Virus record (IMG/VR): IMGVR_UViG_3300013426_000009 | Span: 1 to 43,785 of that record | DNA length: 43,785 bases | Strand: one strand, 5' to 3' | Source of the DNA: a virus | Part shown: piece by piece, positions 1,951-43,785 of the stretch | Numbering within the stretch: position 1 is the stretch's first letter | How the letters are laid out: every line of letters begins with the position of its first letter | Translations under genes and position numbers: made by a program | Notes under the pieces: generated by a model | Database searches by the model: none | What the model saw: the letters and a program-made list of their open reading frames with translations, nothing else | What the model was told of the DNA's origin: nothing

Positions 1951-4094
<2,144 letters not shown>

Positions 4095-18920: not shown

Positions 18921-19738
18921 GGTGCACCCTCCAACACTGCCTTGACGTACCGCAGCCGCTTATTTGCTTTAGCACGTCTCAGGTTGTCGCCCTTGAATGC
19001 AAGCGGCGTACACATTTCGAGAACGCGGTCATAAATGCGCTGATACGTCATGTCTTTCGGCTTGCAAAGCTCGTCCATCGTCAGGTTCGTCGTAACGATC
19101 AGCGGCTTTTTGGCCTTGTATCGCTCGTCAATGACCGTGTAGACGGTTTCCAGCGCATATTCACTGCTGCGCTCTGCGCCAAGATCGTCGATGACTAACA
19201 GCGGGTAGTAATGCACCTGCTCGATGATCTCCTGCTTGTCGTACCCTGCGTTGAGAATGCGTGGGAAGCTCGTGATCATCGCTGGAACACCTCGGTCGAT
19301 CAGCTCATTGGCGATGCACGCCGCCGCGTATGTCTTGCCGTTGCCTGTGTTGCCCCACAGCAGCAGGCCGTTATTCTCGCGCCGCATATCGTCCCATGCG
19401 TCGGCATATCGCTTGCACTTGGCGATCTCTTCGCTCATCGTCGCTGCACCAAACCGGCAGGCTGTGAGGCTCTTGTCGCGGATGCCGTCAGCGCGCAGCG
19501 TTTCGATGCGCAAGCGCTTCTCGCGGTCAGCACGAGCTTTCTTCTCCGCCTCGTACTCCCGCGCCGCGCAAGCGCACTGACAGCCGACAAGGCGCACGTT
19601 GCCGCCGATGGGGATACGGCACTGCTTTGGCGTGTTGCAATGGCCGCAGTACAGCAGCCCGTCCTTCTCGTAGTCGACCGGATCACGCACAGGCTCGGCC
19701 TTTTTCGCGATGCTGTCGATCAATGCGTCAACGTTCAT
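18917..19738 (-). CDS. DnaC/IstB-like AAA+ helicase loader with N-terminal Cys cluster (273 aa)
   Basis: Walker A is GNTGNGKTY and Walker B is LLVIDDLGAE. The N-terminus has CGHCNTPKQC...GCQCAC. Confidence 0.85.
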   Translation of the reverse strand: MNVDALIDSIAKKAEPVRDPVDYEKDGLLYCGHCNTPKQCRIPIGGNVRLVGCQCACAAREYEAEKKARADREKRLRIETLRADGIRDKSLTACRFGAATMSEEIAKCKRYADAWDDMRRENNGLLLWGNTGNGKTYAAACIANELIDRGVPAMITSFPRILNAGYDKQEIIEQVHYYPLLVIDDLGAERSSEYALETVYTVIDERYKAKKPLIVTTNLTMDELCKPKDMTYQRIYDRVLEMCTPLAFKGDNLRRAKANKRLRYVKAVLEGAP

Positions 19739-26092: not shown

Positions 26093-26239
26093 ATGCTGTC
26101 ATCCGAACTGGCGAGCAAAATCATCACCGAGCCGAGCGACGAAGCGCGGGACGCTATGGTGATGGCGCTCAGTGAAAATGATGCGAAAGAGCTGGCAATA
26201 TTTCTGCTTCAATTCATTGGAAGGGGGAAGCGGCCATGA
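26093..26239 (+). CDS. 48-aa ORF translationally coupled to the integrase
   Basis: AAAGGAG precedes ATG 26093. It encodes MLSSELASKIITEPSDEARDAMVMALSENDAKELAIFLLQFIGRGKRP. Its TGA overlaps the integrase ATG as ATGA. It is not in the ORF track because it is under 60 aa. Confidence 0.5.
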   Translation: MLSSELASKIITEPSDEARDAMVMALSENDAKELAIFLLQFIGRGKRP

Positions 26240-27576
26240 AGCGTGCGGCGCTCTATATCCGCGTATCGACCGAAGAGCAGGCGCGGCACGGCCTGTCCCT
26301 CGCCGACCAGCGCGCCGCCCTGGAAGCATACGCAAAGGCGCACTGCCTGTCCGTCGTCGGCGTTTACGAGGACGCGGGCATATCCGCGCGCAAGCCCTAC
26401 AAAAAGCGCCCCGCTCTGCTGCGTTTGCTTGCAGATGTCGAGGCGCAAAAGGTTGATATCGTTCTCTTTATCAAGCTCGACCGCTGGTTCCGCAATGTCG
26501 GGAACTACTATGCGGTGCAGGAAGTCCTTGACCGGCATAACGTCGTCTGGCAGGCCACCGAAGAGGACTACGAGACGCAGACCGCCGCAGGGCGCTTAAA
26601 GGTGAATATCATGCTTTCTGTCGCGCAGGATGAAGCCGACCGCACCAGCGAACGCATCAAATTTGTATTCGAGGGAAAACGCGAGCGGAACGAACCCCTT
26701 TGCGGCAGCGTCCCTATCGGGTATCAGATCGAGGGGAAACAGATGGTGAAAGACCCGAACACCGAAGCCGCTGTTTCCGCCTTTTTCCGCAAATACCTCG
26801 CTTGCGGATCCGTCTTTCAGGCGCAGGACCATGTGCGTCTGGAATACGGCCTGCCGCTGGAATATCAGCGCGCAAGCGACATGCTGGATAAGCCAACCTA
26901 TTACGGGCATTGCTTTGGGAAGGATGACTTCTGCCCCCCATACATCACAAAGCAGGAGTTTGACAAAATACAGTCGATGCGGAAGCGCGTCACGCGCCGC
27001 CCCATCAAAAACCGCGTCTATCTCTTCTCCGGCCTGATGCGCTGCGGGGAATGCGGCGGCAGTTTGGGCGGGCGCACCGAAACGACCGGCGGCGTCAAAT
27101 TCTACAACTGCCCGATCCGATACAACAGGCACGGAGCCTGCGGGAACAATAAGAACATTAGCGAAAAAAAGGTCGAGCGGTACTTGCTCGACACAGTAGA
27201 AGCGAAAATGGAAGCCCTCAAATACGAGATCGCGAGGCTCAAGGAAAGTCAGGCGGAAAAAGACTACTCCGCCGAGATACGAACCCTGAAAGCCAAAACC
27301 TCAAAGCTCAAGGACTTGTACCTGAACGATCTTATTTCTCTGGATGAGTATAAGGCCGACCGGCAAACCATGCTGGAAAAGATTGCCGATCTCGAGAAGA
27401 AGCAGGAACCCGTGAAGATCCCCGACTGCTCGGCAATTGAAAAGGCCCTTGTCACCGGCTGGAAGCCCTTATACGAGGAGCTTTCGCCGGAAAAGCGGCG
27501 CGAGTTTTGGCGCATCATCATCCGTGAAATCCGCTTCTACCCCGACCGCCACATCGAATACGATCTGGCCACTTAA
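26236..27576 (+). CDS. int: Large serine recombinase (integrase), 446 aa
   Basis: The resolvase catalytic domain reads AALYIRVSTEEQ...VYEDAGISA...IVLFIKLDRWFRN. A recombinase domain follows, then the zinc ribbon CGECGG...YNCP...HGAC and a C-terminal coiled coil. Confidence 0.9.
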   Translation: MKRAALYIRVSTEEQARHGLSLADQRAALEAYAKAHCLSVVGVYEDAGISARKPYKKRPALLRLLADVEAQKVDIVLFIKLDRWFRNVGNYYAVQEVLDRHNVVWQATEEDYETQTAAGRLKVNIMLSVAQDEADRTSERIKFVFEGKRERNEPLCGSVPIGYQIEGKQMVKDPNTEAAVSAFFRKYLACGSVFQAQDHVRLEYGLPLEYQRASDMLDKPTYYGHCFGKDDFCPPYITKQEFDKIQSMRKRVTRRPIKNRVYLFSGLMRCGECGGSLGGRTETTGGVKFYNCPIRYNRHGACGNNKNISEKKVERYLLDTVEAKMEALKYEIARLKESQAEKDYSAEIRTLKAKTSKLKDLYLNDLISLDEYKADRQTMLEKIADLEKKQEPVKIPDCSAIEKALVTGWKPLYEELSPEKRREFWRIIIREIRFYPDRHIEYDLAT

Positions 27577-27675: not shown

Positions 27676-28320
27676 TCACTTCATCGTCGCAAGCTTTCTG
27701 ATGAGATCGTCGCCGTACTTGTACGCCGCCAGATAGTCGAGCGTCGGGTCGAGCAGCCCCGCGCGCTTTTGCAGCTGCGCGCGGTAGTCCGGCCCCGTCA
27801 GCTTGCCGTGGAATTCGCTCTCCCACTTGCCCGCGTTCTCTCGGCCTACCCAGTACGCAGGGCAGAGCTTACCCGTCACGTCGAAATGCCGGATGACGTT
27901 GCTCGCGGGGATGCTGTACTTCTTCATCAGCGCCCGCGTCAGCTCGAGCGCCTGCGCGACGGTCTTCGCCCCCGGCGCGTACACGCCATTTTTCTTCTCG
28001 TCGCATAGCTCGATGCTGATGCTGTTGGCGTTCCTGCACTTTCCGTACAGCGTCCCGCCGCCGGTCTGCGCGCAGCTCGGGTACTTCTTGCCGCCGACCG
28101 CCCACGCGATGCGCAAATCGTCCACGCTCTGCACGATCTCCTTTTCGTCGACAAAGTAGTGCGCGCTGGTCTTCACGACGTTGCCCGCGTAATACTTCGC
28201 GTTGTTCATCGCTGTGTCGCCGTCGTTGCCGGTGTAGTGGATGACGATGTACTTGATCGCGCTTGCCGCGCGCGTGCCGCCGACGTTGCCCGCGTTGGCC
28301 GGATATTTGCGGATATCCAT
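27676..28320 (-). CDS. Endolysin, N-acetylmuramoyl-L-alanine amidase (Amidase_2/PGRP type), 214 aa
   Basis: ...IKYIVIHYTGNDGDTAMNNAKYY...SAHYFVDEKEIVQSV...AWAVGG...IELC...NVIRHFDVTGKLCP... RBS AAGGGAG. Confidence 0.9.
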   Translation of the reverse strand: MDIRKYPANAGNVGGTRAASAIKYIVIHYTGNDGDTAMNNAKYYAGNVVKTSAHYFVDEKEIVQSVDDLRIAWAVGGKKYPSCAQTGGGTLYGKCRNANSISIELCDEKKNGVYAPGAKTVAQALELTRALMKKYSIPASNVIRHFDVTGKLCPAYWVGRENAGKWESEFHGKLTGPDYRAQLQKRAGLLDPTLDYLAAYKYGDDLIRKLATMK

Positions 28321-29137: not shown

Positions 29138-29170
29138 AAAAAGAACCTGCCGGAATTCCCGACAGGTTCT
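29138..29170 (-). terminator. Intrinsic terminator after the 2,880-aa gene
   Basis: Minus strand reads AGAACCTGTCGG / GAATT / CCGGCAGGTTCT, followed by TTTT. Confidence 0.8.
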
Positions 29171-29175
29171 TTCTC

Positions 29176-32100
29176 TCACGCTGCTTTCTTTCGCATGATC
29201 GCAAGCTGCTCATCCACCCGCGCGCGGTTCCAGTGGCGGATGCTCTTCGGCACGTTCAGATATTCGTACATCGCCGTGCGCTGCTGCTCGTTGAGGCCCG
29301 AGCGGAACAGCATTTCCATGATCTGTAAGCCCTTGCTCAAGTCAATGGTCTCGCCGTCCTTGTCTTTCAGGCTCTCGCACTCGCTCGCCGCCGCCTTGCA
29401 GGCCGCGAACACGCCCGGGTCGATGCGGTACTGCTTCTGTGCCTCCTGCGCGTTCTGGATCCATTTCGTCGTGATCTCATACTGTCCGCCGGAGTTTTCT
29501 TTCAGCGCCATCGCCTCGGCGTAGCTCTCGACGTAGCCGAGCGCCTTGTCCTTGCCCTCGTCAGAAAGGCGGGAGAACGCGCCGCTGCCCGTCGCCTTGT
29601 CGGCCTGCGTGCGGTAGGTCTCGCCCTTCTGCGTCTCGTACTTGCTGTACGCGCTCGCGTTCAGGTCTGCCGCGCTGAATTTCTCCTCGTCCTCGCCGCT
29701 GTCGTAGGCGTACTTCCCCCGGATGCCCAGCAGATCAAGCGACTTCTGCGGAAGCGAATAGTTTTCTTTGCTCTCGGTTTTCTTCTTGTAGCGGGTTTTA
29801 AGGCTGCTTTGGATGCTCTCGCCGTCAAGGCCCATCTGCTCCATCAGGTCGCGGCGGATGTGCTCATAGGTCGTGTAATCGCCCTGTTCCAGCGCATCGT
29901 AGAGGATGGAGATAAACCGGCTCTTGTTGCCGCTGTTGGCAAGGTTATAGCTGAACTTCTCCACCTCGTACTGGAAGCCGAGACTGCCGCTCGCCTGCGC
30001 GATGGTCCGGATCGTTGCCATCACGTCGCGCTTGATGTTAGACACCGGCAGTCCAAAGACCTTACTCGCTTGGGCAAGCAGTGTGAGCGTCGCTTCCTTG
30101 TTGGTCTGTCTCCCGTCCCCTCCAATACTTTTGATGAAGACACTTGCAGCACTGAGGAGCCCTGCAATGCTCTCCATATCCGGGCGGGACACGTCATAGC
30201 CCTGCATGATTGACAGCGTATCCTTGACAACCGGAATTTTCGTTAAGGGGTTCAGGTTGCTGCCGACGTTGCCGTTCAGTACGATATTCGAGATCAGCTC
30301 TGTTGCGCTTTCTTCATCGCCCTCTACTCCTGTAAACGCGGTAAAGAATTTCTCCCAGTAGTCCTTATCGCGGTCATCGTCGCGAAGCGCATCAACGACG
30401 CTCTGTGCCAGCGCATTCACAACGTCCGTAACGACAAGCGCCGTCGCTGCGCGTCCGAGCGACTTTAATGCCTTGCTGCGCTTCGTCGGGTTCTCCTCGT
30501 AGCGGAACGCGTCGTAGCTGCGCATCAGCACGTTCAGCGTCATAATTGGTTCGCCCATGAAGGCCGTTGCCTGTTGAGAGAAATCTCCCTTGCCGCGCAT
30601 GATGTTACTGCGCTGCAAGATGCCGTCAACGACCTGCGTCTGGTCGATCATGTCGGAGAACACGTCGTTGACCGCGCTGTAAAATTCATTGCTGCCCGCG
30701 CGGACATCGGGCTTTTCGCGCTTCACCTGCCATTCGCAGGCGTTCCACAGCTTCCCCCACGTCACAGCGTCCGCTTTGCCAGCCGCCGCACCTGCGAGGT
30801 CATTCAGCTTGTTCGTCACGCCCTCCTTGCCGTAAAAGCGCTCTTTCAGCGTGTACGGCGACGAGATATCGAAGCTGCCGACGTCCTTGCGCATTGCGAT
30901 AGGCGAATGCTCAAGCGCTTTCTCCCAGCCGCTGCCCTTCGTCACGCCGCCGGTCATGCCCTTTGCCATGTCCTTCGGGTCGAGCACCGCCGCCGCACGG
31001 AAGAATGCCGTCGGCTGCTGGATGACGACGCGGATGTTCGCACCGACCGCTGCGCCCTTGAATTTACCGGTGTTTTTTGTCATGAAATCGCGGAACGGTT
31101 CAAAGTCTTTGACGCCGATACCGTTCTGAATGTCGCCCATCAGCTTTGTCCAGTACTGCTGTGCGCCCTTGCCGCCCTTTTCGTCGAGCAGGCCCTTGAC
31201 GCTCACGCCGGTTTTGTTGCCCGCGTCATTGCGGTACTGGAAGTTGAAGAAGCGGTTTGCATCCTCCATCGGCGCGAGCCATGCCGCGTAGTTGATCATA
31301 TCGGACGCGTGATCGGCAAACGTATCGAACACGCTGCGCAGCTCCACGGCGTTGTTCGCGTTCGGCGTCACCTGCTGTGCCATGCCGATGTTCTTGATGG
31401 AGCGCACATTGCCGCTGTCCTCTTCCTGCGTACTGTGCAGGCCCTCCGCCGCCGACCTGATGGGCCAGTAGTTTTTCTCGGTGAATTTGCGGTAGCCGTA
31501 GGCCTGCATGCTGGCATCGTTGCCGTACTTGGCAAGCGTCGTCGCGGTAAGCTCCTGCAAGCCGTCCGCCACGCGCTTCTGCTCGTCCGTCAGCTTGCCC
31601 GTGATGCGCTCGATGTCGCCCTCGGTCAAAAAGACCTGCCGCGTGCCGCGCTGCACCTTCGTCTTGCCGGTCTCCGCGCTCTTGATCTCCGGCTGAATGA
31701 CGCCGCCGCCGAGCAGATGTCCGAGCGCCTGCTTGCGCTTGCTCAAAAGGTACAGCTCCATGATCTGCGGCGTCGTCAGCGTCAGCTTGCCGCCGTTGGC
31801 AACGGTGATATCGTGCGTCTCCGCCTCCCATTTGCCGATGGCGCTGCCGCGTGCGTCGCGCAGCGCACCTTTCAGGTCGCCGTGGATGGCCTTGCCCGCA
31901 ACGTCCTTGAAGCCCGCCTCGCCCAGCTCGTCGCCAAGCACCTTCTGCGTCTTCTCGGCGATGTCTCGCGCCATGACCTCCTGCGAATCCTGCGCGTTGC
32001 GCAGCATCCGGTAGATGCTCTTGCCCGTCTCGCCGTAGTGCGCGAAGAACGTGTACGGCGTTTCCAGACTGATCGTCATATTGCCGCCGAGCTTCTGCCG

Positions 32101-35100
32101 CCGCGTGCTCACGTCGGTCTTGAAGCTGTCCGCCATCTGCTTTGTGGTCTCAAATTTGCTCTTGGAGAGCACCTTGCCAGCCGTCGAGACGGAGTGCTCC
32201 ACCGCACGGATGGTCTTCCACATCGTCCCGAGCTCTTCCCTCGTCAGCTCAGAGAGCCGCTTGTCCTCCATGCCGATGACCTGCTCAAGCAGGCCGTCCG
32301 AGCCATCAGTCCCAAGCAACGATGGGTCAACGACCATGTCGCCGCCCTCGTTGTCCTCCAAGATGGACTGATACTGCTTCTGCAATGCGCGGAACGCCTC
32401 GGTGCGCTTTGTCGGCGTGCCGCTGCCGTCATAGACACGCTTGCCGCTCTCATCCACGGTGTAGGCGCTCTCCTGATTGATGCTGTTCAGCACCGCCGCC
32501 ACCGCCGAACGCATATTCTCGGGGATGTGCTTCGTGTCCGTCGGGCGCAGCAGCTTCTTCGACAGGTCTTTCGCGTGCCGCGTGATCTTCGCGCGCAGCT
32601 CGCGGCGCTTCTGACCCTCGCGGCGCGTTGCGTCCTTTTCGCGGTAACGGTCTTTCAGCGCATCCAGCTTCTCCGCCTGCTGCGTGCGGGCTTTCTGCAA
32701 AGCCTCCTGCGTGTGCCGCAGCCTCGCCGTCTGCCGTTCGAGTTTCTTTTCCCCTGCGAGCTTTGCGTCCGCTGCGGCCTTGCGGCCCGCCGCCTTTGCC
32801 GCGACCAGCTTTTCCGCCTGCACGTCGGCGAAGGTCTTCTTCGCCTGCGGCAGGTCGAAGAACCGCTCCATGATGTCGTTGGAAATGGCGCTGACCGCCT
32901 GACCCATATAGCCCTCAAACGGGTTATATTCGCCCACGTTGTATAGCTCGTTCGCCACCTCGGCAATGCGGCTGATCTGGTCGCTCACGTTGTTCTCGCG
33001 CGTCTCGCTGAAAAACTCGGGGTAGCTCTCCGCCAGCTCGGAATACACCTGATCGACGTTCGTGCGCTCGCCCCTGCCAAGATTTACCTTGCCGAAAAGC
33101 CCTCGGCGGAAGTCGGCATAGTCCGTGATGCCCGCCGCATCCTCGGCAGAGAGTGTGATCTTCGTATCCTTGAGGAATTTGCGCAGCTCGCTGTACTCGC
33201 GGTATACCTCGTCGTCCTTTGCAATGGCGCTTTCGGCGATGCGCTCGGCAATGGAATCTGCGCGGCTTCTCGCCTCGGTATAGGTGAGTTCGCCGGTCTC
33301 GTCGCCGCCGCGCGCGATGTAGTCGTACAGGCTCGCAAGGTCGCCAGCGATCTCGCTGCTGTCGATCTCCGCGCTGTAATCCTTCACGAGCCTCTTTGCC
33401 GCCTGCTGGACGCTCCTGCTGTCGGTGCGCACGCCGTCTGAGCGGCGCGTCTGCCCCTTCCAGTAGTCCACGCGCTGGCGCAAGGTCTCGTTCTCGCGCT
33501 TGAGCGCCGCGAGCTCCTGCGCATTCTCCGTGCCCTTGAGGGAAAGAAACTGCGCAAGGCTCGATACCTGCGGCGTCGTTCCGTCTTCAAAATAGGCTTT
33601 GATATCGGCAAGCACCTTGTTTGCGTGTGTGCCGCGCGGATATTCCGTGCTCGATACCGTCTGCCCGTCAGGCGTATCAAGGTCAAGGATGACCTCGCCG
33701 CGATTGTGGCTGATGAAGTCGGAAAGGGAATCGAGTTGGTTCTTTGTCGGCATGACCGAAAGGTTGATACCGCCGCTTTCCGGCGAAATGCGGATATTGC
33801 CCTCGCTCATAAACTGGACCATGCTGCCGCTGTAATCGCTGCCGCCGTAGTCATCGCCAAGAGCGTCGCGAATATCTCGATGGTCGACCGTGCGATATCC
33901 GCCGGGGCCACCTTCGTGCCTGCCGGAGAAGTCGAGCTTTTTGCCGTTCGTCAGGATGTAGCCGGTCTCCGACCACTTATAGGTGTGCCCGAAATACTCG
34001 TCCGCGTCCTTGCGGTGCTGCTTCTTCTCTTCGTCGGTGTACTCTTTCAGCGAATAGCGCTTCTTGACATTCTCGCCATTTTGGGGTATACTACTTTTAG
34101 AGACGGATGCAGTGTTTCTGTTGGTTCCCGGTGACGGGTTCTCAGCTTTCACTGCATCGGTCTCTTTTTCTACGAAAGAGGTCGGCTGCAGGTTCAAAAT
34201 GTCGTACAGCAACATACTTCCGCTTTCTCGTGTGCCTACCACCACTTCCGCTGTGTAGTCATTCCCGCCCACACGCAGCAACACATTGCCTCTTGCGAAG
34301 TCTGCAATCTTGTCCTTGCGTGGATGGTTCAGCCCTTCGTTCACCCAGTTCGTCGTCGCGTGCAGAATTTCATCGGCATTGTTCGTGGCGCGGAGTTTGT
34401 CTTCCCGTAGCTGCGGGTCGTTATTGTAGAGCCACTGCATATACCGCGAGAATGTCATCTCTTGACGGCTCTGATAGTCAATATTGATCTCGTTGTTCCC
34501 CACGGTGATGCCGCTGGGGAATTTATTTTTCAAATTCGCTTTGACCGTCGACACCCAATCTTTCTGTGGGATGCCATCGAGAATATCTTCGTCGACTTCG
34601 ACAAAGGACTTGTTGTCCGTGGTTTTTTCAATGCTGTAGCTCTTTCCGCCGTCCGCGAACACCGTGTCCTCGTCGCCGATGTTCGGCTTGCGGCCCATGC
34701 GCTCGTCCGCCGTCAGGCCGCGCCGCGCCGCAGCGTCCCGCGCCTCGATCTCGCCCGCCGTATTATGGTAGAGATCATAAGCGTTCATCTCTTCGCCGCG
34801 GTCGCTGAGCCATTCGAATTCTGCCATATCAAGCTGCGACCACAAATCAGCGTACTCGCTGTCGTACAGCTCGTCGACGACAGCCTCCGCCGCATCGTAG
34901 TCACCGTCCAGCCTGGCTCGGTTGATCCTGCGCACCTTGTCCTTGAATTCTTCCGGCGCGCTGTCGAAGATGCGATGATATTCTTTCCTTGCACGCTCAA
35001 TGCGTCCGTCGTTCTTCCGGCGCGAATAGCCGCCTTGTATCATCTCGTCCCAGTATACAGGGCTTGTCCCTCTCGCGAATCCCTCCCGCTCCTGAATAGC

Positions 35101-37818
35101 GTGCTGAATCTCATGGATGAGAGTGCCTTTCAATTTCTCTGGTTCCAGTTTTAGCCCCGTTCTTAAAACGATCTCATTTTCTTCGGGGTGATAGCTTCCT
35201 TCTTTGTTCCCTGTGTTGGCCTCGAAACGCACTTTCATATCTCTCAGTGCCGGATACGCTTCAAACAGTTTGTCGTGCCTTACGATCTCGTCTAAATAGA
35301 GGGGTGACTTTCTAACGCCCTTGAGATTTTTGTCGAGAATCTGTAGCTCATTCAAATCTTCCGCAGTGGCAGTGTCGTGTAAATAAGCCTTTTCAAAAAG
35401 CTCGTTGTAGCGCTTTGCATCGGGGTTTCTGAGAAAATTCCATTTAGTGTCGGTTTCTGTGCCGCTGTCGTCGATCTCCCAGCGCCACTTCCCATCTGCG
35501 CCGCGGAACCAGCCCGTTTTCTGCCGGATGGTCTCGGCATCAGCACCGCTTTCCTCCATCTCTTTTGCCGTATTAAGCGCTTCTTTGTCCGCATTCTTTG
35601 CATTTTCTCCTGCAAACATAAAGCGCTTCTTGCCGCCCTCTGTGGCGGCATTTTTGCTGCTCTTCGCCGCCGCCTCGAATGCCTGCTGCAAAAGCCCTTC
35701 CGCCGTCTGCGCCTGCTTCTTGGCCTTGCCGGTCAGCTTGCCCACGATCTCGCGGATAGCGTCGCGCAGCTTTTCAAGCAGCGTCCGGTCTTCGCTGTGC
35801 CTGCGGATAAACTCATTCAGCACGTCCGTGTTGGCGATCATCTCGCCCGCGTAGTTGGCTGCGGCCTCGTCCAGCGCTTCATCCATGCTGGTCTCAACGC
35901 CCATGCGGTTGTACTGCTCGTGCAGGATGTTCGCCGCCTCGGCGACGTCGGGGTCTTCCATGATGGCATTGCGGAACGCCGTGTACTGCTCGGGCGCGAG
36001 CTCCTGCACGCGGTGCGTCCACTCATGGCCGACGACCTGCATCACGGGGTCCTGCGCGTCCTTTGCAATGCGGATTTCGTTCCCCTCGATGACGCCGTTG
36101 GCCTTGCCTCCCATCACTTCATCCGCCATACGCACGCGCACGCCGAGCGCCTTTGCAACGGTGTTGATCTCATCCGCCGTCGCGTTATCCATGCTGCGCG
36201 AAACGTAGTCATCATAGACAAGGCCGCTGCTGCCGTCGCTTTCCTGCGCGAAGGTCTTCTTGCGCGCCTCGGCCTTCGCGTCGTTCTGCCCTGCGGCATA
36301 GCCCGCGTAGGCCGTCTCATTCGTCGGGTTCGGATTCGCTTTGCCTTCCACGCCCGCATTGTAGGCGGGAATAAAGTCCTTCACGTGCTCTGCCGTGTCC
36401 TTGCCCTCCTGATACGAGCCGCGGATCGCCTTGCGCCCGCTCTCGCCGATCATGCTGTCGTAGCGCGCAAAAAGCCTGTCGGCAATGCCGTTCACGACGT
36501 CCGCGTCGCTGCGCGTCTCCGTCTTCGTGTTCGGCAGCTCGGTACGGCTGTCATAATAGCGCCCGCCGCGGTTGCCGATGGCTTCCACACCGCCGCCAAG
36601 CCCGCCGAGAATGCCGCCGACGAGAAAGTCGTTCAGAATTTCCGATGCTTCCAGCTCGCTGTAGCTCCCGCCGAGCGTCTTGCCGTTATAGATCATCTGC
36701 AAGGCAGGCTGAATGAGGTCTTCGATGGCTTCCTCGCCGCCCTCTTCCAGAAACGACAGCGCGATCTTGCCCGCCGCGCTGCTGTTAAGCCCCTGCATCG
36801 TCCGCTCGATGACGTCGTCTAAAAAGCCCTTGCCGAACATCTTCTTGAACGGAGCCGCCGCGTTGCCGATCTTCTCGGTCGCCACGCTCAGCGCGCCGCT
36901 CGCAAAGCCATAGTTGACCTGCTGCTCGTGTGTTGCGCCCTGTCTGCGTGCCTCCTGAGCGCTTCCTCCCATGCTGCGAACGAACATCGCAGGGAGCGCG
37001 CTGCCGCCCGTAGCGAGGCCGAGAACGGCGTCCGCGCCCATCTGTGCGCCCGCAACGCCCACGTCGACCGCGAGCTGCCCGACCTTGCCGAGGCCGCTTT
37101 TCGCCTTGTTGATATCTCTTGTGCCGCTGTCGGCCAGCCTGTCAGCGGTCTTATAGATCGCGCCCGCCGTGCGCTCGACCTCGCCGCCGATGCCGTATGC
37201 CTGCTGATACGCCGCCTTGCGTGCTTCCAGATTGGTGATGACGGTGCGCGCCGTTTCGCGTTCGCTTTCCGTGCTTTCGGGGTCGTTCAGCACTTCGCGC
37301 TGCGCCTTGATGTCCTGATCCCACAGCGCGATTTCTTTCTCGGCCTCATCGCGGCGCTGTAAGCCGCTTCCGGTCTGTGCCATGCCCGCCACATTGACAA
37401 GGCCCGCGCCGTAGGTCTTCGCCGCGCCTTTTGCCGCGTTCCCGACGCGCTGCGCGACCGTCGGCGTCTTCACGTCCTGCACGTGCTTCTGAAAGGCGCT
37501 CTCGCTCTGGTAGTTTTTCGCCTCTTTCTGCTGCAAGGCACCCTTGCCAAGATTTTGCGCAAGCGCACTCTGGTTCTTCGGCGTCACGACATTCTGCTGC
37601 GTCGTCGGCTGCTGACGGAACACCGGCGAAGTCGCTTTTACTCTCTCCTTCATTCTTGACGTGCTGGGCGTATTTAGTTTGTCCGCCTCATCTGCGCGTT
37701 CAACAAACTGTGCATGTGCATCTTTTCGGGCTGCCCAAGAGGCCGCACCGTCAAACGATGCGGCCCTCTCCTTTTTGCGTGCCGCCCATGCGGACGCACC
37801 GTCAAAATTCCCCGACAT
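29176..37818 (-). CDS. Giant polyvalent virion/ejection-type protein (2,880 aa) with two zincin-like HExxHxxQE modules
   Basis: RBS AAGGAGGACAAGATAT precedes ATG 37818. There is a Gly-zipper hydrophobic region at about aa 240-415. GHEWTHRVQE is encoded at nt 36013-36027 and LIHEIQHAIQEREGF at nt 35101-35115. Further polyvalent-protein-like modules, long coiled coils and a ~1,000-aa C-terminal region follow. Confidence 0.85.
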   Translation of the reverse strand: MSGNFDGASAWAARKKERAASFDGAASWAARKDAHAQFVERADEADKLNTPSTSRMKERVKATSPVFRQQPTTQQNVVTPKNQSALAQNLGKGALQQKEAKNYQSESAFQKHVQDVKTPTVAQRVGNAAKGAAKTYGAGLVNVAGMAQTGSGLQRRDEAEKEIALWDQDIKAQREVLNDPESTESERETARTVITNLEARKAAYQQAYGIGGEVERTAGAIYKTADRLADSGTRDINKAKSGLGKVGQLAVDVGVAGAQMGADAVLGLATGGSALPAMFVRSMGGSAQEARRQGATHEQQVNYGFASGALSVATEKIGNAAAPFKKMFGKGFLDDVIERTMQGLNSSAAGKIALSFLEEGGEEAIEDLIQPALQMIYNGKTLGGSYSELEASEILNDFLVGGILGGLGGGVEAIGNRGGRYYDSRTELPNTKTETRSDADVVNGIADRLFARYDSMIGESGRKAIRGSYQEGKDTAEHVKDFIPAYNAGVEGKANPNPTNETAYAGYAAGQNDAKAEARKKTFAQESDGSSGLVYDDYVSRSMDNATADEINTVAKALGVRVRMADEVMGGKANGVIEGNEIRIAKDAQDPVMQVVGHEWTHRVQELAPEQYTAFRNAIMEDPDVAEAANILHEQYNRMGVETSMDEALDEAAANYAGEMIANTDVLNEFIRRHSEDRTLLEKLRDAIREIVGKLTGKAKKQAQTAEGLLQQAFEAAAKSSKNAATEGGKKRFMFAGENAKNADKEALNTAKEMEESGADAETIRQKTGWFRGADGKWRWEIDDSGTETDTKWNFLRNPDAKRYNELFEKAYLHDTATAEDLNELQILDKNLKGVRKSPLYLDEIVRHDKLFEAYPALRDMKVRFEANTGNKEGSYHPEENEIVLRTGLKLEPEKLKGTLIHEIQHAIQEREGFARGTSPVYWDEMIQGGYSRRKNDGRIERARKEYHRIFDSAPEEFKDKVRRINRARLDGDYDAAEAVVDELYDSEYADLWSQLDMAEFEWLSDRGEEMNAYDLYHNTAGEIEARDAAARRGLTADERMGRKPNIGDEDTVFADGGKSYSIEKTTDNKSFVEVDEDILDGIPQKDWVSTVKANLKNKFPSGITVGNNEINIDYQSRQEMTFSRYMQWLYNNDPQLREDKLRATNNADEILHATTNWVNEGLNHPRKDKIADFARGNVLLRVGGNDYTAEVVVGTRESGSMLLYDILNLQPTSFVEKETDAVKAENPSPGTNRNTASVSKSSIPQNGENVKKRYSLKEYTDEEKKQHRKDADEYFGHTYKWSETGYILTNGKKLDFSGRHEGGPGGYRTVDHRDIRDALGDDYGGSDYSGSMVQFMSEGNIRISPESGGINLSVMPTKNQLDSLSDFISHNRGEVILDLDTPDGQTVSSTEYPRGTHANKVLADIKAYFEDGTTPQVSSLAQFLSLKGTENAQELAALKRENETLRQRVDYWKGQTRRSDGVRTDSRSVQQAAKRLVKDYSAEIDSSEIAGDLASLYDYIARGGDETGELTYTEARSRADSIAERIAESAIAKDDEVYREYSELRKFLKDTKITLSAEDAAGITDYADFRRGLFGKVNLGRGERTNVDQVYSELAESYPEFFSETRENNVSDQISRIAEVANELYNVGEYNPFEGYMGQAVSAISNDIMERFFDLPQAKKTFADVQAEKLVAAKAAGRKAAADAKLAGEKKLERQTARLRHTQEALQKARTQQAEKLDALKDRYREKDATRREGQKRRELRAKITRHAKDLSKKLLRPTDTKHIPENMRSAVAAVLNSINQESAYTVDESGKRVYDGSGTPTKRTEAFRALQKQYQSILEDNEGGDMVVDPSLLGTDGSDGLLEQVIGMEDKRLSELTREELGTMWKTIRAVEHSVSTAGKVLSKSKFETTKQMADSFKTDVSTRRQKLGGNMTISLETPYTFFAHYGETGKSIYRMLRNAQDSQEVMARDIAEKTQKVLGDELGEAGFKDVAGKAIHGDLKGALRDARGSAIGKWEAETHDITVANGGKLTLTTPQIMELYLLSKRKQALGHLLGGGVIQPEIKSAETGKTKVQRGTRQVFLTEGDIERITGKLTDEQKRVADGLQELTATTLAKYGNDASMQAYGYRKFTEKNYWPIRSAAEGLHSTQEEDSGNVRSIKNIGMAQQVTPNANNAVELRSVFDTFADHASDMINYAAWLAPMEDANRFFNFQYRNDAGNKTGVSVKGLLDEKGGKGAQQYWTKLMGDIQNGIGVKDFEPFRDFMTKNTGKFKGAAVGANIRVVIQQPTAFFRAAAVLDPKDMAKGMTGGVTKGSGWEKALEHSPIAMRKDVGSFDISSPYTLKERFYGKEGVTNKLNDLAGAAAGKADAVTWGKLWNACEWQVKREKPDVRAGSNEFYSAVNDVFSDMIDQTQVVDGILQRSNIMRGKGDFSQQATAFMGEPIMTLNVLMRSYDAFRYEENPTKRSKALKSLGRAATALVVTDVVNALAQSVVDALRDDDRDKDYWEKFFTAFTGVEGDEESATELISNIVLNGNVGSNLNPLTKIPVVKDTLSIMQGYDVSRPDMESIAGLLSAASVFIKSIGGDGRQTNKEATLTLLAQASKVFGLPVSNIKRDVMATIRTIAQASGSLGFQYEVEKFSYNLANSGNKSRFISILYDALEQGDYTTYEHIRRDLMEQMGLDGESIQSSLKTRYKKKTESKENYSLPQKSLDLLGIRGKYAYDSGEDEEKFSAADLNASAYSKYETQKGETYRTQADKATGSGAFSRLSDEGKDKALGYVESYAEAMALKENSGGQYEITTKWIQNAQEAQKQYRIDPGVFAACKAAASECESLKDKDGETIDLSKGLQIMEMLFRSGLNEQQRTAMYEYLNVPKSIRHWNRARVDEQLAIMRKKAA

Positions 37819-37832
37819 ATATCTTGTCCTCC

Positions 37833-39038
37833 TTAGTAGCCGTAGCTGCTGAACAGTTCTTCTGCCTCGCTGTACTGTTCCTCACTCATACCGCCTGCTA
37901 CCTGATCCATGTACGCCTCGGCTGCTTTCACTCTACCCTCTCGCAGATTGACGCGAATGTTGTTCAACACAGCTTCCCACTCACTGGCCTTCATGCCCTG
38001 ATTGCGAACCGTGCCGTATCCCTTCGGCTCATCATTGCCGTCCGGGTCATACCCGTATTTACTTTTAAGATATTCGTCGTTATATCCGTTGTAATAGAAG
38101 ACGTTCAGCACCTCATCGGTAAACTGTCCAGCTTTCGCCATCTCTTTAGCGGTCGACAAGCTCATACTCGGCTTGCTGGGCGCATTGCTCACTCGCCCGC
38201 CGCTACTTGCCGCCTGCGCGGCCTGCTGCAATTGATACTGCCATTCCGCGTCATAGCGCGCGTCCTCAATGGCGTCGCGTTCCTTCTGGTAGTCGTAGTT
38301 GAGCTTGTCCTGCTGCTTCTGATACGCCAGCGCATCCGCCGTCTGCTGGTCGCTCACCTGATCGCGTGCGAGCTGATAGAGGTAGTTGCGGTCGGTCAGC
38401 CAGCGGTTGTAGTTGTTGTCTTCAAGGCCGATGAGCGTGCTCAGGTCGGCGCGGTCGGCGCTCAGGTCGTCCTGATACATGCCGTAGGCAAGCTGCTGGA
38501 GCTCGGGAATCTTGTCCGTCATCTGGCTCATCTGGTAGTCGCTCGCTTGCTGGCTCGCTGCCACCGCCGCCGTGGACGGCATTCCGCCCGTCATCACTGC
38601 CGTCTTGCCGAGCACGTCCTCCGCGCTGCGGTCCGCCTCGCGCGTATACTGCTTGCGGTACTGCTGATAGAGCGGGTCGCTCGCCGCGTCGTAGCTGAAT
38701 TTTTCGCGGTTCAGCAGCGCGTCGAGCTTTGCGCTGATCTGCCCGCTCTGATCGTAGTTGTAACTGCTGTCGCCCAGCTTATCGAGCCAGCTTGTGTCAG
38801 CCTTCGCAGGGCTCGCGCCCGTGCCGAGCTTGATGTACTCGCTGCCGTCCACGCCGCCGGAATAGTCGTACTTCGCGCGAATCTTCTCCGCCGCGTCGTG
38901 TGCCGCCTGCTGCCCCGCCTTGTCGCCCTCGGCATAGGCCTTGTTGTAGGCCTCGGTATACTGCCGGATGAGATCGAGGTCGCCCGAATCGCTGATGAGC
39001 GTCAGGTCTGTATTCTTGTGTTTGAAATTATCTGCCAT
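37833..39038 (-). CDS. Gln/Tyr/Asp-rich structural (ejection-protein-like) protein (401 aa)
   Basis: RBS GTGAGGGGACA. It lies directly upstream of the giant gene. No catalytic motif recognised. Confidence 0.7.
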   Translation of the reverse strand: MADNFKHKNTDLTLISDSGDLDLIRQYTEAYNKAYAEGDKAGQQAAHDAAEKIRAKYDYSGGVDGSEYIKLGTGASPAKADTSWLDKLGDSSYNYDQSGQISAKLDALLNREKFSYDAASDPLYQQYRKQYTREADRSAEDVLGKTAVMTGGMPSTAAVAASQQASDYQMSQMTDKIPELQQLAYGMYQDDLSADRADLSTLIGLEDNNYNRWLTDRNYLYQLARDQVSDQQTADALAYQKQQDKLNYDYQKERDAIEDARYDAEWQYQLQQAAQAASSGGRVSNAPSKPSMSLSTAKEMAKAGQFTDEVLNVFYYNGYNDEYLKSKYGYDPDGNDEPKGYGTVRNQGMKASEWEAVLNNIRVNLREGRVKAAEAYMDQVAGGMSEEQYSEAEELFSSYGY

Positions 39039-39045
39039 TGTCCCC

Positions 39046-40632
39046 TCACTTTCTGCCGCCCGTCACGTATTCGTACTCGAGCGCATAGAGCCGGTATTCT
39101 CCCGTAGCTTTGATTTTCAGCCTGAAGTGGTCGCAGCGGCGGATCGGGCAGTTGAGCGTGAAAACGTCCTTCTCCTGCGCCCCGCAGCGGTCTACCTCTT
39201 CCCACGCGCCGCTGTCAAATTTGACAAGGAACACGACCGTCGCGCCCTTTTCGCATTCCAGCCGTGCCCGTACGCGCTGCACGTGCTTTGCGTCGAACGA
39301 GCCGCCGTCATAGTCGGCAAACTCCGCCTCACTGCTGACGCCCCCCTCGCGCGTCGCGCCGGTCGGGACGTCTGCCGGATTCCCCAGCAGCACGCACCCG
39401 CCGTCTACTAAGGCCATGATACCGCCCGAATAGGCCATTTGCACCACGGCGAGCGCATCTTCCTTGTGCCACACGCCGTTTTCGCTGCTGTAGCAATACA
39501 GCGCCGCTTTGCCGTCCTCTTTCAGGCTCACGTAGTAATTGAGGCCGTCGCTGCCGCCCACGGCGTCGGAGAGCCGCACATCGTCGCCCAGCGCGCGGGA
39601 GATGCAGCGCGGCATGCCGCCGCTGTACGCCATGATGCCGACCTTCGAGAGGTAATAGAGCGTTTCGCCCGCCACAGCAAGGCTCTTGTGGCTTCCTTTC
39701 ATCACGCCGAGCACCGCGCTCGACATGAGCTGAAAGTTCGTCGGGATCGTGCCGTACATCTTGAATATCTTGTCCTCTTTGAAAAAGCACGGATAGCCGA
39801 GGTAGCTCACGCACGCCGTAAACGCCCCCGCCGTGCCGCTCTCCACGCTGAACGCGTCCGTAGATAGCCCGTCAAACACGTTCCAGTTGTACGGATCGCC
39901 GAGCTTTGAGGCAAAGATGCTGTCATCCTTGCAGCCCCACACGCGGTTTTCGTTTGTGCAGACAAAATCCATGTCGGGCACGGTGCGCTTGAGAGTGACC
40001 TCGCCGGTCTCCGTGATGCTCTCCTGCCCCTCGGGCAGGCGGAACGTGTTCTCGTAAAAGCGCAGCGTCTTCTTGTCCTCGCTGATCTCGCGGATGATGG
40101 GCGTGCGGTTGTTGTAGGCCTCCTTTGTGCAGCCCGAGATCGTCACCGCGTCGCCCACGTTGAAAGGGAACGCCGCGCCGGTCGTCGTGATGCTGTTCGC
40201 CTCGGCCTTTTCGTCGGCATACGTGCCGTTGCCGAATTTCAGCCCCGTCGCGCTGTAGCTTGCCTCCATTGGCTTGATCGTGCCGTCCTTTTCGCACACG
40301 ATCTTATCGGGAAAGATGAGCACGCGCTTGCCCAGTGCGCAGAAGGCCTTTTCGCTGTCTGCGACCGTCGCCTTCTCCTCACCGTCGATATAGAGTTTCG
40401 TGCCGTACACCTCGTAGAGCTTGCCCGCGCTGAAAATGCCGTTTGCCGTGCTCATATTCTTGCGGACGGTATAGCGCCGCGCGCGGGGAGCGAGAAGCGG
40501 AAAGTACCGCGCCGACAGGTTCTTCATGTCGTAGAGCTCGCCGCCCGCCGCGCCGAACGTGTGGTTGATTCCGCCGAATTTCTCCTGCTGCACGCGCCGG
40601 TTTGCGTATGCCGTGATCTCAGGCAGTCTCAT
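39046..40632 (-). CDS. Tail hub / stabilisation-type protein, beta-rich (528 aa); tentative P22 gp10-like role
   Basis: ATGA coupling to the upstream gene. The size and the C-terminal ...IRRCDHFRLKIKATGEYRLYALEYEY are loosely reminiscent of podovirus hub proteins. This is my recollection only. Confidence 0.65.
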   Translation of the reverse strand: MRLPEITAYANRRVQQEKFGGINHTFGAAGGELYDMKNLSARYFPLLAPRARRYTVRKNMSTANGIFSAGKLYEVYGTKLYIDGEEKATVADSEKAFCALGKRVLIFPDKIVCEKDGTIKPMEASYSATGLKFGNGTYADEKAEANSITTTGAAFPFNVGDAVTISGCTKEAYNNRTPIIREISEDKKTLRFYENTFRLPEGQESITETGEVTLKRTVPDMDFVCTNENRVWGCKDDSIFASKLGDPYNWNVFDGLSTDAFSVESGTAGAFTACVSYLGYPCFFKEDKIFKMYGTIPTNFQLMSSAVLGVMKGSHKSLAVAGETLYYLSKVGIMAYSGGMPRCISRALGDDVRLSDAVGGSDGLNYYVSLKEDGKAALYCYSSENGVWHKEDALAVVQMAYSGGIMALVDGGCVLLGNPADVPTGATREGGVSSEAEFADYDGGSFDAKHVQRVRARLECEKGATVVFLVKFDSGAWEEVDRCGAQEKDVFTLNCPIRRCDHFRLKIKATGEYRLYALEYEYVTGGRK

Positions 40633-42290: not shown

Positions 42291-42656
42291 TCACACCTTC
42301 CAGTTGCCCTTGCTTTCTTTGCGGTTCTCGCGCCGCCACCATGCCATAGCGTCGGCCACTGCCTCGTTGGCGATGGCGTGGTCGTTGGCGTAGAGCGCGC
42401 TGTCCTGATTGTAGGCGTCGAGCTGCGCGGCCAGATACAGATGGTAGCACTCGTTGTGCCCGTCCGGCAGCAGCAATTCCATATCCTCGACGCTCGCGGT
42501 GTCGTCCTCCACGCTCACCTTGAGGGTGGGGGCTTCCGCCCCCATCATCTCGGCGATCCGGTGCTCAAGCACCATAAGGATTTCCGCCTTGCGCGGCGTG
42601 CTCAGTTTGTTGGGCCGCAGCGCGTCCGCGTCGCGGATAGCTTTCAGCAGCTTCAT
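42291..42656 (-). CDS. Hypothetical structural-module protein (121 aa)
   Basis: ATG 42656 overlaps the upstream stop as TGATG, with GGAGGT 7 nt upstream. The ORF track starts one GTG codon earlier, at 42659. Confidence 0.7.
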   Translation of the reverse strand: MKLLKAIRDADALRPNKLSTPRKAEILMVLEHRIAEMMGAEAPTLKVSVEDDTASVEDMELLLPDGHNECYHLYLAAQLDAYNQDSALYANDHAIANEAVADAMAWWRRENRKESKGNWKV

Positions 42657-43396
42657 CACTTAACCTCCGTAAAATACTGCCCCACGACCTCATGCGGCAG
42701 ATACTGCAGCACGATCTTCCCGCCCGCGGCCTCGCCGGTGCGCTCGCACAGGTACGTCTTGCCGTCCTCGCTGTCGAGGTAGTACTTGCCATACTCGTAT
42801 TCCATGCCGCGGCTCGCGGGGATGGGGTCATCCTGCGTGCCTGCGTGCTCCACGTCGACCACGACCCACAGCGCGGGCGTTGCGGCGGGGTTCCAGCCCT
42901 CTTGCGAGGTGTGCGCCTGCTGGCACTTGTAGAGCTTGCCGTTATCGTTCACGCGGTCGCCGACGGCGTAGCTGACGGGATATGCCCACGTGGGGAACAG
43001 CTCGACCGCCTTTGCCGCCTCGCCGTCCGGCAAACTCACCGCTGCCGCCTCGATGACCGGTCTCAGCTCCGCCGCGCGCTGCGGCGTAATGCTCTGGCCC
43101 ACCAGCGCCGTGACGGCGTTCTCGCTATTTGTGAGTTGTGCAGCGCCGCCGATCTGCTCAAAGCCTCCGGTCGGTTCGTTGCCGTGCATAGTCTTACCGT
43201 CAAAGCGATATACAGTATCGACCATCGCCGCGATCGGTTCGCCGTCTTCCGTTGTCGTTTCTCTTGCGATTTTTGCGCAAAATCCTTCTGCCTCATCCTC
43301 ACTGCACGGGATATAACATCCGTTGATGTGTAGCTTGATGAGCAAGACAGAATCAGCGTAACCGTCAAATACCCCGTTTTTGGTTACTGCGTACAT
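42656..43396 (-). CDS. Protein with a C-terminal chitin-binding-type-3 / CBM5-12-like carbohydrate-binding motif (246 aa)
   Basis: The ORF track gives 42656..43522. I moved the start to ATG 43396, preceded by GGAGGGAATGT. ...TWAYPVSYAVGDRVNDNGKLYKCQQAHTSQEGWNPAATPALW... Confidence 0.7.
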   Translation of the reverse strand: MYAVTKNGVFDGYADSVLLIKLHINGCYIPCSEDEAEGFCAKIARETTTEDGEPIAAMVDTVYRFDGKTMHGNEPTGGFEQIGGAAQLTNSENAVTALVGQSITPQRAAELRPVIEAAAVSLPDGEAAKAVELFPTWAYPVSYAVGDRVNDNGKLYKCQQAHTSQEGWNPAATPALWVVVDVEHAGTQDDPIPASRGMEYEYGKYYLDSEDGKTYLCERTGEAAGGKIVLQYLPHEVVGQYFTEVK

Positions 43397-43755
43397 ACAT
43401 TCCCTCCGATCTTTCGTTGATAAATTTCTTCCAGTTTTTTTGTTGATGCCGTTCTCAAGCGGTTTTTCCAGTATCTGTTTTCCTGATCCGGCCATTTCTC
43501 GTCTGCAAAGTCGTCCGCGCAACCGTGCTTGTCATAGTAGCGATAGAGGCCGTCGAGCATTTCTTGTCGGTACGCGCCCTCCGGCGTGTTCGGGCGGAAA
43601 TGCTCCCACCCGTTTTCAGACGTGACGGCGCAAATCCGCCGCTCGTCAGCGGCAAAGAGAAAGCCGTCCCGCTCCGCGACAAGCGTCCCGTATCGGAGGT
43701 TAAACCCTCCGTCGATGCCCTCGGCCTTAAAGCGCCGATAGACGATATACTCCAT
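43384..43755 (-). CDS. Hypothetical protein (123 aa); its 5' end is repeated at 1..47
   Basis: RBS AAGGGAGGATAAAGCT precedes ATG 43755. The gene follows 106..528 across the circular junction. Confidence 0.75.
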   Translation of the reverse strand: MEYIVYRRFKAEGIDGGFNLRYGTLVAERDGFLFAADERRICAVTSENGWEHFRPNTPEGAYRQEMLDGLYRYYDKHGCADDFADEKWPDQENRYWKNRLRTASTKKLEEIYQRKIGGNVCTQ

Positions 43756-43785
43756 AGCTTTATCCTCCCTTGAATAATTCTCGAT
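43709..43785. repeat. Terminal overlap, identical to 1..77
   Basis: Same 77-mer as the window start. Confidence 0.95.

Follow-up and report, generated by a model that had tools for sequence, protein, structure and literature searches.

A giant phage polyvalent protein with a variable slot inside a constant backbone

A single giant gene before the lysis genes

The DNA analysed here (hereafter the window) is the whole of virus record IMGVR_UViG_3300013426_000009, 43,785 nucleotides (nt) long, and its largest element is one open reading frame (ORF) at positions 29176-37818 on the minus strand, whose 2,880-amino-acid (aa) product combines a constant backbone with one internal slot that is filled differently among its relatives. 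Coordinates given below refer to the window and aa numbers to the 2,880-aa product. The two ends of the window overlap exactly over 77 nt (1-77 = 43709-43785), which indicates a circular assembly of 43,708 unique bp, and the giant ORF takes up 19.8% of this circle. An earlier reading of the DNA, made from the letters alone (the sequence-only reading), had pointed to a single large ORF at this place covering about 20% of the genome; the frame is indeed uninterrupted, on the minus strand. Read on the plus strand, the same positions give a translation full of stops. The strong ribosome-binding site and the strong terminator that had been announced are both present, the latter as a hairpin with a folding free energy (dG) of -25.7 kcal/mol (z = -5.4), and every peptide quoted at the time was found in the translation at its stated place. 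More than 4,040 database proteins match the product at E <= 1e-5; the best 120 homologues measure 2,383-2,811 aa, and ~44-kb contigs carry many of them. The giant ORF is thus no assembly artefact. Its features are as follows.

29176-37818, minus strand: complete ORF with ATG start, 2,880 aa plus stop, encoding the giant polyvalent carrier protein
37828-37833, minus strand: ribosome-binding site AGGAGG, 9 nt upstream of the ATG
29138-29174, minus strand: terminator-like hairpin, 16-bp stem followed by a U-tract, beginning 2 nt past the stop codon
36379-37818, minus strand: N-terminal region, aa 1-480, conserved from about aa 50 onwards in close relatives, with loose conservation only in the superfamily at large
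35623-36378, minus strand: predicted backbone zincin domain (N3), aa 481-732, directly upstream of the slot
36013-36027, minus strand: HEWTH, aa 598-602, active-site motif of the backbone zincin
34654-35622, minus strand: predicted cargo module A, aa 733-1055, LPD23 and a DUF6782-type zincin, present or absent in relatives
34045-34653, minus strand: predicted cargo module B, aa 1056-1258, LPD3-like alpha+beta domain
34045-34059, minus strand: RYSLK, aa 1254-1258, canonical junction motif at the B/C boundary
33544-34044, minus strand: predicted cargo module C, aa 1259-1425, strongly conserved, matching no known family
31969-33543, minus strand: first part of the C-terminal backbone, aa 1426-1950, helical and charged, aligned with positions 2053-2557 of the PHROG 22978 profile
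29179-31968, minus strand: C-terminal carrier domain, aa 1951-2880, almost wholly helical, without Pfam family or PDB fold match

A constant backbone interrupted by one slot

The protein was compared with its close family, i.e. 121 sequences comprising the query and its 120 best homologues, by BLASTP, and the related loci were compared by BLASTN. In both comparisons the alignments are continuous over aa ~50-60 to ~730 and over aa 1426-2880, and protein and DNA alignments alike break sharply at aa ~730, ~1055, ~1250 and ~1425. These breaks divide the protein into five parts, namely an N-terminal constant part, modules A, B and C, and a C-terminal constant part. Pfam recognized LPD23 at aa 733-787 (E = 1.5e-24, 86 bits for a cutoff of 27) and the DUF6782 metallopeptidase at aa 862-919 (E = 5.8e-8, 32.7 bits for a cutoff of 27), both within module A. 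NCBIfam gave no match to the giant protein, and a PDB sequence search with the whole protein returned noise only.

Outside the slot, the sequence-only reading was right in part. The FDGA(S/A)xWAARK motif that it saw duplicated at the N-terminus does occur twice (aa 5-15 and 22-32), but within the stretch of aa 1 to ~50 that is not conserved among relatives. The supposed hydrophobic Gly-zipper of aa 240-415 is Gly/Ala-rich and holds a GxxxGxxxG run at aa 401-410, but is only moderately hydrophobic (maximum Kyte-Doolittle value 1.35 over 19 residues). In the C-terminal half, PHROG 22978, a family of unknown function whose profile is 3,513 positions long, covers aa 1429-2826. Here about 500 aa of coiled coil had been proposed; we found heptad character in short stretches only, the longest at about aa 1658-1760, and aa 1426-1950 form a conserved, ordered part of the backbone.

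The mosaic character of the slot is visible at short evolutionary distance. Two close homologues (P0004 and P0005) share 98-99% identity with the query over aa 1-733 but only 86% over aa 1056-2880, a step in identity which places a recombination breakpoint exactly at the slot. At least 10 slot architectures were counted among the 121 close homologues. The query, which is also the longest member, is the only one to carry A, B and C together; other combinations include LPD3+C, a divergent LPD3-like module+C, B alone, A'+B, A+C, MuF_C+C, A+MuF_C and unknown modules+C. At the same place, distant loci (among L002-L007) carry ART-PolyVal (1.6e-17), PBECR5 (1.6e-61) and MuF_C (5e-23), and a Pfam search of 14 diverse members with long slots found ART-PolyVal in 7/14, PBECR5 in 6/14, MuF_C and LPD23 in 2/14 each, and ADPrib_exo_Tox and GNAT in 1/14 each. 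Measured from the end of the aa 481-732 domain to the start of the aa 1426 region in 85 representatives, the slot ranges from 0 to 1,598 aa (median 528), so that backbones without cargo exist.

From these comparisons the constant part appears to act as a carrier and the slot as its cargo, an organisation that, like the motif at its junctions, had gone unremarked in the sequence-only reading. That reading had called both the combination of modules and the position of the gene unusual. The A+B+C combination is indeed unique among the 121 close members; the position is not unusual, having precedents in JC1 gp69 and phi24B gp47, which are considered below.

Two zincins, one of which belongs to the backbone

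HExxH occurs exactly twice in the giant protein, first as HEWTH (aa 598) and then as HEIQH (aa 902). In 90 diverged representatives, H598, E599 and H602 of the first are 100% conserved, and E651, inside a conserved DE motif, is 99% conserved. An HExxH motif with a distal Glu is the general gluzincin signature (PMC5512222); by this pattern, aa 481-732 is a predicted protease that belongs to the backbone and stands immediately upstream of the slot. It is intact even in the cargo-free versions. The second zincin, in module A, combines HEIQH (aa 902) with GEIEARD (aa 1022-1028), and HEIQH and GEIEAR are invariant in a smaller alignment of module A. Both HExxH zincin modules recognized by the sequence-only reading are therefore borne out.

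BLAST between the two zincin regions was not significant, and hhalign set them in register over the beta-strand and HExxH core only, with a probability of 23%. The two are thus neither recent duplicates nor close paralogues. The first had been described as DUF4157-like, which we could not reproduce, as Pfam has no match to aa 481-732 even at E <= 5; the sole trace of this type is eCIS_core (PF13699, which we take to be DUF4157 under a new name), with E = 0.093 in the equivalent region of one relative, L007. A search of the PDB sequences with the N3 profile gave only spurious matches to ubiquitin and plectin.

A short motif marks the module boundaries

Every module starts with a short motif, in forms such as GENVKKRYSLK, AKFSLKT, IRFSLK and RKYSLKT, whose consensus is [RKQ][FY]SLK. 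In the query the canonical copy stands at the B/C boundary, and degenerate copies are seen at about aa 732 (KRFMFAG), 1059 (KSYSIEK) and 1422 (QFLSLKG). In most backbones that have scant cargo or none, one junction-like S[LI]KG is left between the two halves.

We counted the pattern [FY]S[LIVM][KR] in the 85 representatives and compared the counts with the expectation from shuffled sequences. It occurs 154 times in the 52,575 aa of the slots (shuffle mean 6.6, maximum 16) and 4 times in the 195,253 aa of the backbones (shuffle 20.9 ± 4.6, minimum 8). Long DNA repeats that could be recombination substrates were not found at the junctions within the query gene; the motif is thus conserved at the protein level. 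It is no regular boundary marker in two unrelated giant polyvalent proteins, as shown by its two copies in the 4,203 aa of the Bacillus phage Dartukuta protein and none in the 3,145 aa of that of MW202426, and we found nothing relevant on an FSLK/YSLK motif in the literature. A protease site that selection keeps out of other places would be expected to show such a pattern, enriched at boundaries and depleted elsewhere, which makes the motif a candidate for such a site. We give cleavage of the polyprotein at the motif somewhat less than an even chance.

The cargo modules of this phage

Module B contains the stretch NADEIL... (aa 1147-1195), which the sequence-only reading had likened to the PBECR/MuF-C nuclease modules. 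This likeness did not hold up: Pfam offers only a sub-threshold LPD3 (PF18798) match over aa 1086-1201 (20.3 bits for a cutoff of 27, E = 6.7e-4, profile positions 4-111 of 114), and the genuine MuF_C and PBECR5 modules occupy the same slot, but in relatives. LPD3 in the same slot of relatives reaches 31.8 bits. Modules B and C were folded together with AlphaFold2 (AF2), a single MAFFT alignment of aa 481-1425 having been dropped after fragments of the N3 domain smeared across its length. The model of module B is confident (predicted local distance difference test, pLDDT, about 85-95) and shows helices packed on a four-stranded antiparallel sheet; H1165 is invariant, D1149 and E1150 are conserved at ~80%, and an F..RG motif lies at aa 1174-1177. 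Foldseek of modules B and C against the PDB yielded nothing significant, the best hit of module B being to NTF2-like folds (E = 0.057), and a B+C profile had no match among the PDB sequences.

Module C, which includes the stretch GYILTNGKKLDF... at aa 1286-1316, carries the motifs DFSGxHEGxPGGYRxVDHR and EGNIRIxPESxGINL. It is 98-100% identical in close relatives whose adjoining constant regions are 82-93% identical, and still 65-80% identical across clusters of no more than 50% overall identity, a pattern that may reflect either very strong constraint or recent spread. Pfam has no family for it, and its AF2 model is poor (pLDDT <50 over most of the module).

A backbone family of thousands of clusters

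An exhaustive HMMER search with aa 1951-2880, clustered at 50% identity, gave 3,990 clusters at E <= 1e-3, of which 2,737 at E <= 1e-30. Among the 150 best hits, it is nearly always the C-terminus of a protein of 2,000-4,200 aa that matches. Regions of the query were then mapped onto these 150 best representatives, with the following result.

aa 481-732 (backbone zincin): matched in 91/150 representatives
Module A: matched in 6/150
Module B: matched in 11/150
Module C: matched in 13/150
aa 1426-1700: matched in 127/150
aa 1701-1950: matched in 146/150
aa 1951-2300: matched in 149/150
aa 2301-2680: matched in 150/150

The AF2 model of aa 1951-2880, built from a 40-sequence alignment, has a mean pLDDT of 78.9 and is almost wholly helical. 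Foldseek found no neighbour for it in the PDB (best E = 0.5, template modelling score (TM) <= 0.13), which excludes RNA-polymerase-like, importin-like and known ejection-protein folds for this domain. Against BFVD, the same model gave 56 matches at E <= 1e-3, nearly all of them C-terminal pieces of giant proteins from uncultured phages, and these are named after varied cargo (nuclease, MuF C-terminal domain, PolyVal ART, LPD, type I restriction enzyme, N-acetyltransferase). A fold match to a "structural protein" of Tenacibaculum phage Gundel (E = 2e-4, TM 0.18) was too weak for use.

The giant protein contains a conserved acidic cluster, RDDDxDK, and N4-like virion RNA polymerases are always fused to metallopeptidase (MPTase) domains (PMC5512222). 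Both facts could be taken to mean that the C-terminal domain is a virion-packaged RNA polymerase of N4 or crAss type. However, the PDB holds RNA polymerase structures and the model matches none of them, neither Pfam nor the PDB sequences give a match, and the phage is temperate with ordinary regulatory genes, so that we find this identification hardly credible.

The gene lies where P22-type ejection proteins are encoded

Almost all genes of the phage are on the minus strand. In the order of transcription, a small terminase (GP3_package, 1.3e-13), a large terminase, a portal protein (P22_portal, 3.9e-30), a 396-aa protein in scaffold position and the major capsid protein come first; the collagen-repeat tail fibre, a DUF6273/Hoc-like protein, several small proteins, a 528-aa protein, a 401-aa protein and the giant ORF follow, and three small membrane (holin-like) proteins and an Amidase_2 endolysin end the series. 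The genes around the giant ORF are the following.

39046-40632, minus strand: upstream neighbour, 528 aa, PHROG 511 "internal virion protein" (1.7e-52)
37833-39038, minus strand: upstream neighbour, 401 aa, syntenic in prophage relative L001
27676-29110, minus strand: downstream lysis cassette, three small membrane (holin-like) proteins and the Amidase_2 endolysin

The giant ORF closes a P22-like structural module, and the holin-like genes and the endolysin gene come immediately after it. Its placing between structural and lysis genes by the sequence-only reading is confirmed by these neighbours, the PHROG 511 protein upstream and the membrane proteins and endolysin downstream. In P22, the ejection proteins are the final genes of the morphogenetic block, and "ejection-protein position" is thus a fair description of where the gene lies. 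The P22_portal, GP3_package and PHROG 511 matches support the view that it occupies the place of P22-type ejection proteins.

Judged by its gene content and relatives, the phage is predicted to be a temperate phage of short-tailed type with a P22-like head and packaging module, from Oscillibacter or related Oscillospiraceae. Its relatives are prophages, or contigs in metagenome-assembled genomes named Oscillibacter sp. ER4, Oscillibacter UBA11510, Oscillospiraceae and Clostridiales, and prophage L001 lies within a 361-kb bacterial contig with an identical gene order. Megablast of the DNA against phages gave no match, and no close cultured phage was found: the portal and the 528-aa protein match uncultured human-faecal contigs only, apart from Bacillus phage PK1 (25% identity).

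This setting bears on two further identities for the protein. Its great length, its Gly-rich hydrophobic stretches and one weak TMP_N match (E = 0.046) recall the tape-measure protein of a long-tailed phage. However, no tail tube, sheath, tape-measure, tape-measure chaperone, distal-tail or baseplate gene was found among the annotated genes of the phage, lysis genes instead of tail-tip genes lie downstream, the head and packaging module is P22-like, and a protein that varies from ~2,380 to 2,880 aa among near-identical phages by gain and loss of whole modules is a misfit for a tail-length ruler. A tape measure is accordingly very improbable.

The gene position would also suit a mainly structural ejection or channel protein, analogous to T7 gp15/gp16 or P22 gp7/gp20/gp16, that spans the envelope; its zincin or zincins would then digest wall or envelope, and the slot would adapt it to the envelope or receptor. 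The zincin that cargo-free backbones still have and the Gly/Ala-rich, moderately hydrophobic N-terminal region fit such a protein, and the authors of the phi24B study proposed a role of this kind for gp47 (10.64898/2026.04.10.717836). On the other hand, the cargo of the relatives consists of enzymes predicted to act in the cytoplasm (ART-PolyVal, PBECR5, MuF_C, GNAT), no peptidoglycan-hydrolase family was detected in the giant protein by Pfam, and the solved ejection proteins have no fold similarity to aa 1951-2880. Moreover, HExxH gluzincins are, to our knowledge, not a usual class of cell-wall hydrolases. We regard a mainly structural function as unlikely.

An injected carrier as the probable explanation

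Taken together, the data are best explained by a virion-borne, host-injected carrier with a backbone zincin, a slot that recombination fills with effectors, and a proposed cutting at [RKQ][FY]SLK; we consider this explanation, as a whole, probable. In such a carrier, the constant backbone (aa ~60-730, ending in the gluzincin, and the helical aa 1426-2880) would most likely serve for incorporation into the capsid and for ejection with the DNA. Recombination would fill the slot between the two backbone halves with different effector modules, which here would be LPD23 with the second zincin, the LPD3-like domain and the conserved domain of unknown family, and in relatives predicted PBECR/MuF_C RNases, ADP-ribosyltransferases, a GNAT acetyltransferase, or nothing. 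Delivery of these modules would presumably take place at the first moment of infection, against the defences of the host or of competitors, and we propose that the backbone zincin frees the cargo by cutting the polyprotein at the motifs that bound every module. Packaging and delivery are suggested by the gene position and by the precedents of proteins found in virions (PMC9144972; 10.64898/2026.04.10.717836).

The same precedents speak against a protein made late and left unpackaged. Such a protein would work inside the cell that produces the phage or inside the lysogen, for instance to exclude superinfecting phages or in the manner of a toxin-like polyprotein, and its slot would be diversified by conflict with competing phages. 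The phage is temperate and its relatives are prophages, and possible anti-superinfection roles of polyvalent proteins have been mentioned (PMC5512222). But the gene is part of the late structural operon, closely spaced with virion genes, and the terminator comes only behind it; moreover, all experimentally examined giant polyvalent proteins in such a position are virion-associated (PMC9144972; 10.64898/2026.04.10.717836). An unpackaged protein is, in our view, less likely still than a mainly structural one.

Several observations nevertheless weigh against the injected self-cutting carrier. Modules A, B and C, with their LPD23 and LPD3-like domains, are only presumed effectors. Cargo-free backbones keep an intact zincin, which means that cargo release cannot be the zincin's only role. 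The 85 representatives share ancestry, and the depletion of the motif in their backbones does not amount to 85 independent observations; the motif also overlaps the first predicted beta-strand of module B in the AF2 model, and may thus have a structural or linker role rather than be a cleavage site. Neither a PDB sequence search nor Foldseek detected any likeness of the backbone to a characterised ejection protein. Finally, the backbone's matches in the phage databases are to uncultured faecal contigs only.

A bolder form of the same idea is more tentative, and we give it less than an even chance. The backbone could define a large, undescribed platform for effector delivery, used by phages of gut Firmicutes and by phages from other environments. 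It would be a self-processing polyprotein, in which any effector (RNase, ADP-ribosyltransferase, acetyltransferase, protease) might be dropped between two sites and released in the host at injection; the scarcity of the motif in a backbone of ~2,200 aa would then reflect selection against self-destruction.

Relation to known systems

Polyvalent proteins were defined by Iyer et al. in 2017, who described the MPTase as a hub domain and likely processing enzyme and reported mosaic jhp1044 orthologues in Helicobacter prophages (PMC5512222). The giant protein combines at least two domains of their repertoire, a zincin with HExxH and a downstream Glu, a structural-gene setting (also in prophage L001) and a variable architecture. 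By these features it is, as far as domain prediction goes, a polyvalent protein in the sense of Iyer et al., which sustains the term used by the sequence-only reading: LPD23 and the DUF6782 zincin are matched in a protein with mosaic orthologues encoded among virion genes. As in that class, disparate effector domains share one polypeptide with a zincin MPTase and are combined in many ways among orthologues. Three features set it apart from the class as described: variation is limited to a single slot flanked by two large constant parts, no described LPD or Pfam family covers the ~1,450 constant aa at the C-terminus, and a specific motif stands at the boundaries.

Giant members of this kind have been reported from podoviruses. 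JC1 gp69 has 4,515 aa, takes up 22% of its genome, was found in the virion by mass spectrometry (51 unique peptides) and is encoded just before the lysis genes (PMC9144972). Together with Bcep22 gp75 it represents the "DarB-like antirestriction protein" of the Bcep22-like phages (Lessievirus), a single ORF covering ~20-22% of the genome in a podovirus reported as capable of lysogeny (PMC9144972). Like the giant ORF, JC1 gp69 is the last gene of the morphogenesis module and encodes a multi-domain protein with LPD-type modules, in its case LPD3 and LPD38. It differs in showing no detectable sequence similarity to the backbone (a whole-protein tblastn against 50,697 phage records returned no such phage), in its cargo, as the giant protein lacks both the lytic transglycosylase and the DarB methylase-helicase of JC1 gp69, and in that a slot or junction-motif organisation is not described for it. 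The second precedent, gp47 of phi24B and 933W-type phages, is a 2,811-aa polyvalent protein, abundant in virions, invisible in cryo-electron microscopy maps and proposed to be an ejection protein (10.64898/2026.04.10.717836). Here too a podovirus, the Shiga toxin (Stx)-converting phi24B, encodes a giant LPD-containing protein with a metallopeptidase, but the domains are LPD5, LPD1 and LPD38, the host is Gram-negative, and gp47 was not retrieved by tblastn from the giant protein. A comparable giant protein of PTXU04 is essential (PMC11879866).

The P22 (gp7/gp20/gp16) and T7 (gp14/15/16) ejection proteins share with the giant protein the gene order relative to a P22-type portal, a scaffold-position gene and a coat gene, with a neighbour that matches PHROG 511. 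They have no sequence or fold similarity to it, and it is several times larger, with enzyme-like cargo. Polymorphic toxins such as CdiA, which carry a conserved VENN junction before a swappable C-terminal toxin, resemble it in combining a constant delivery scaffold with a recombining effector at a short conserved boundary motif. Their variable part is single and C-terminal, whereas here the slot is internal and holds no module, one or several in a row; phage ejection would take the place of a secretion system in delivery, and immunity genes are not evident.

What is already known, then, is the class of polyvalent proteins, since 2017, and giant virion-borne examples from podoviruses, by proteomics. 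What is new is the backbone, found in thousands of clusters without a Pfam family or PDB fold, its single internal slot, its invariant zincin and the boundary motif. One slot, one boundary motif and one resident protease would make a testable rule for how phages diversify an injected arsenal, a rule that would cover thousands of human-gut phage proteins currently without annotation. The slot contents would form a catalogue of candidate effectors for anti-defence or host takeover, among them the well-conserved LPD3-like module B and module C, and the carrier might in principle serve as a vehicle for bringing proteins into Oscillospiraceae, a group that is difficult to manipulate.

The search also brought up a further giant protein. 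Bacillus phage vB_BspP_Dartukuta (L011, MW749009.1, positions 42617-55228), a podovirus by its name, has a 4,203-aa ORF labelled only "putative methyltransferase", in which HExxH occurs four times and module A has a homologue. From these features it appears to be another under-annotated giant polyvalent protein.

Other genes of the phage

Downstream of the lysis genes, a large serine recombinase/integrase (26236-27576, plus strand; PHROG 95, 1.2e-102) adjoins the endolysin gene (27676-28320, minus strand) on the opposite strand. Prophage L001 has a CHAP-domain lysin (18513-19088 of its locus) where the phage has the Amidase_2 lysin (27676-28320), and the two at the same synteny show that the lysis cassette has been exchanged between close relatives.

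Within the structural region, the 714-aa tail fibre (1950-4094, minus strand) contains seven collagen-repeat stretches (Pfam Collagen, 1.1e-44) and is followed by a 469-aa protein (586-1995, minus strand) with a DUF6273/Hoc-like C-terminus. A 288-aa protein of the same region (42656-43522, minus strand) has a CBM_5_12 carbohydrate-binding module (7.1e-14) and may be a receptor-binding or cell-wall-binding component. Finally, a 490-aa DNA methyltransferase (13840-15312, minus strand; PHROG 116, 4.3e-67) is predicted to be a second, conventional anti-restriction device beside the giant protein.

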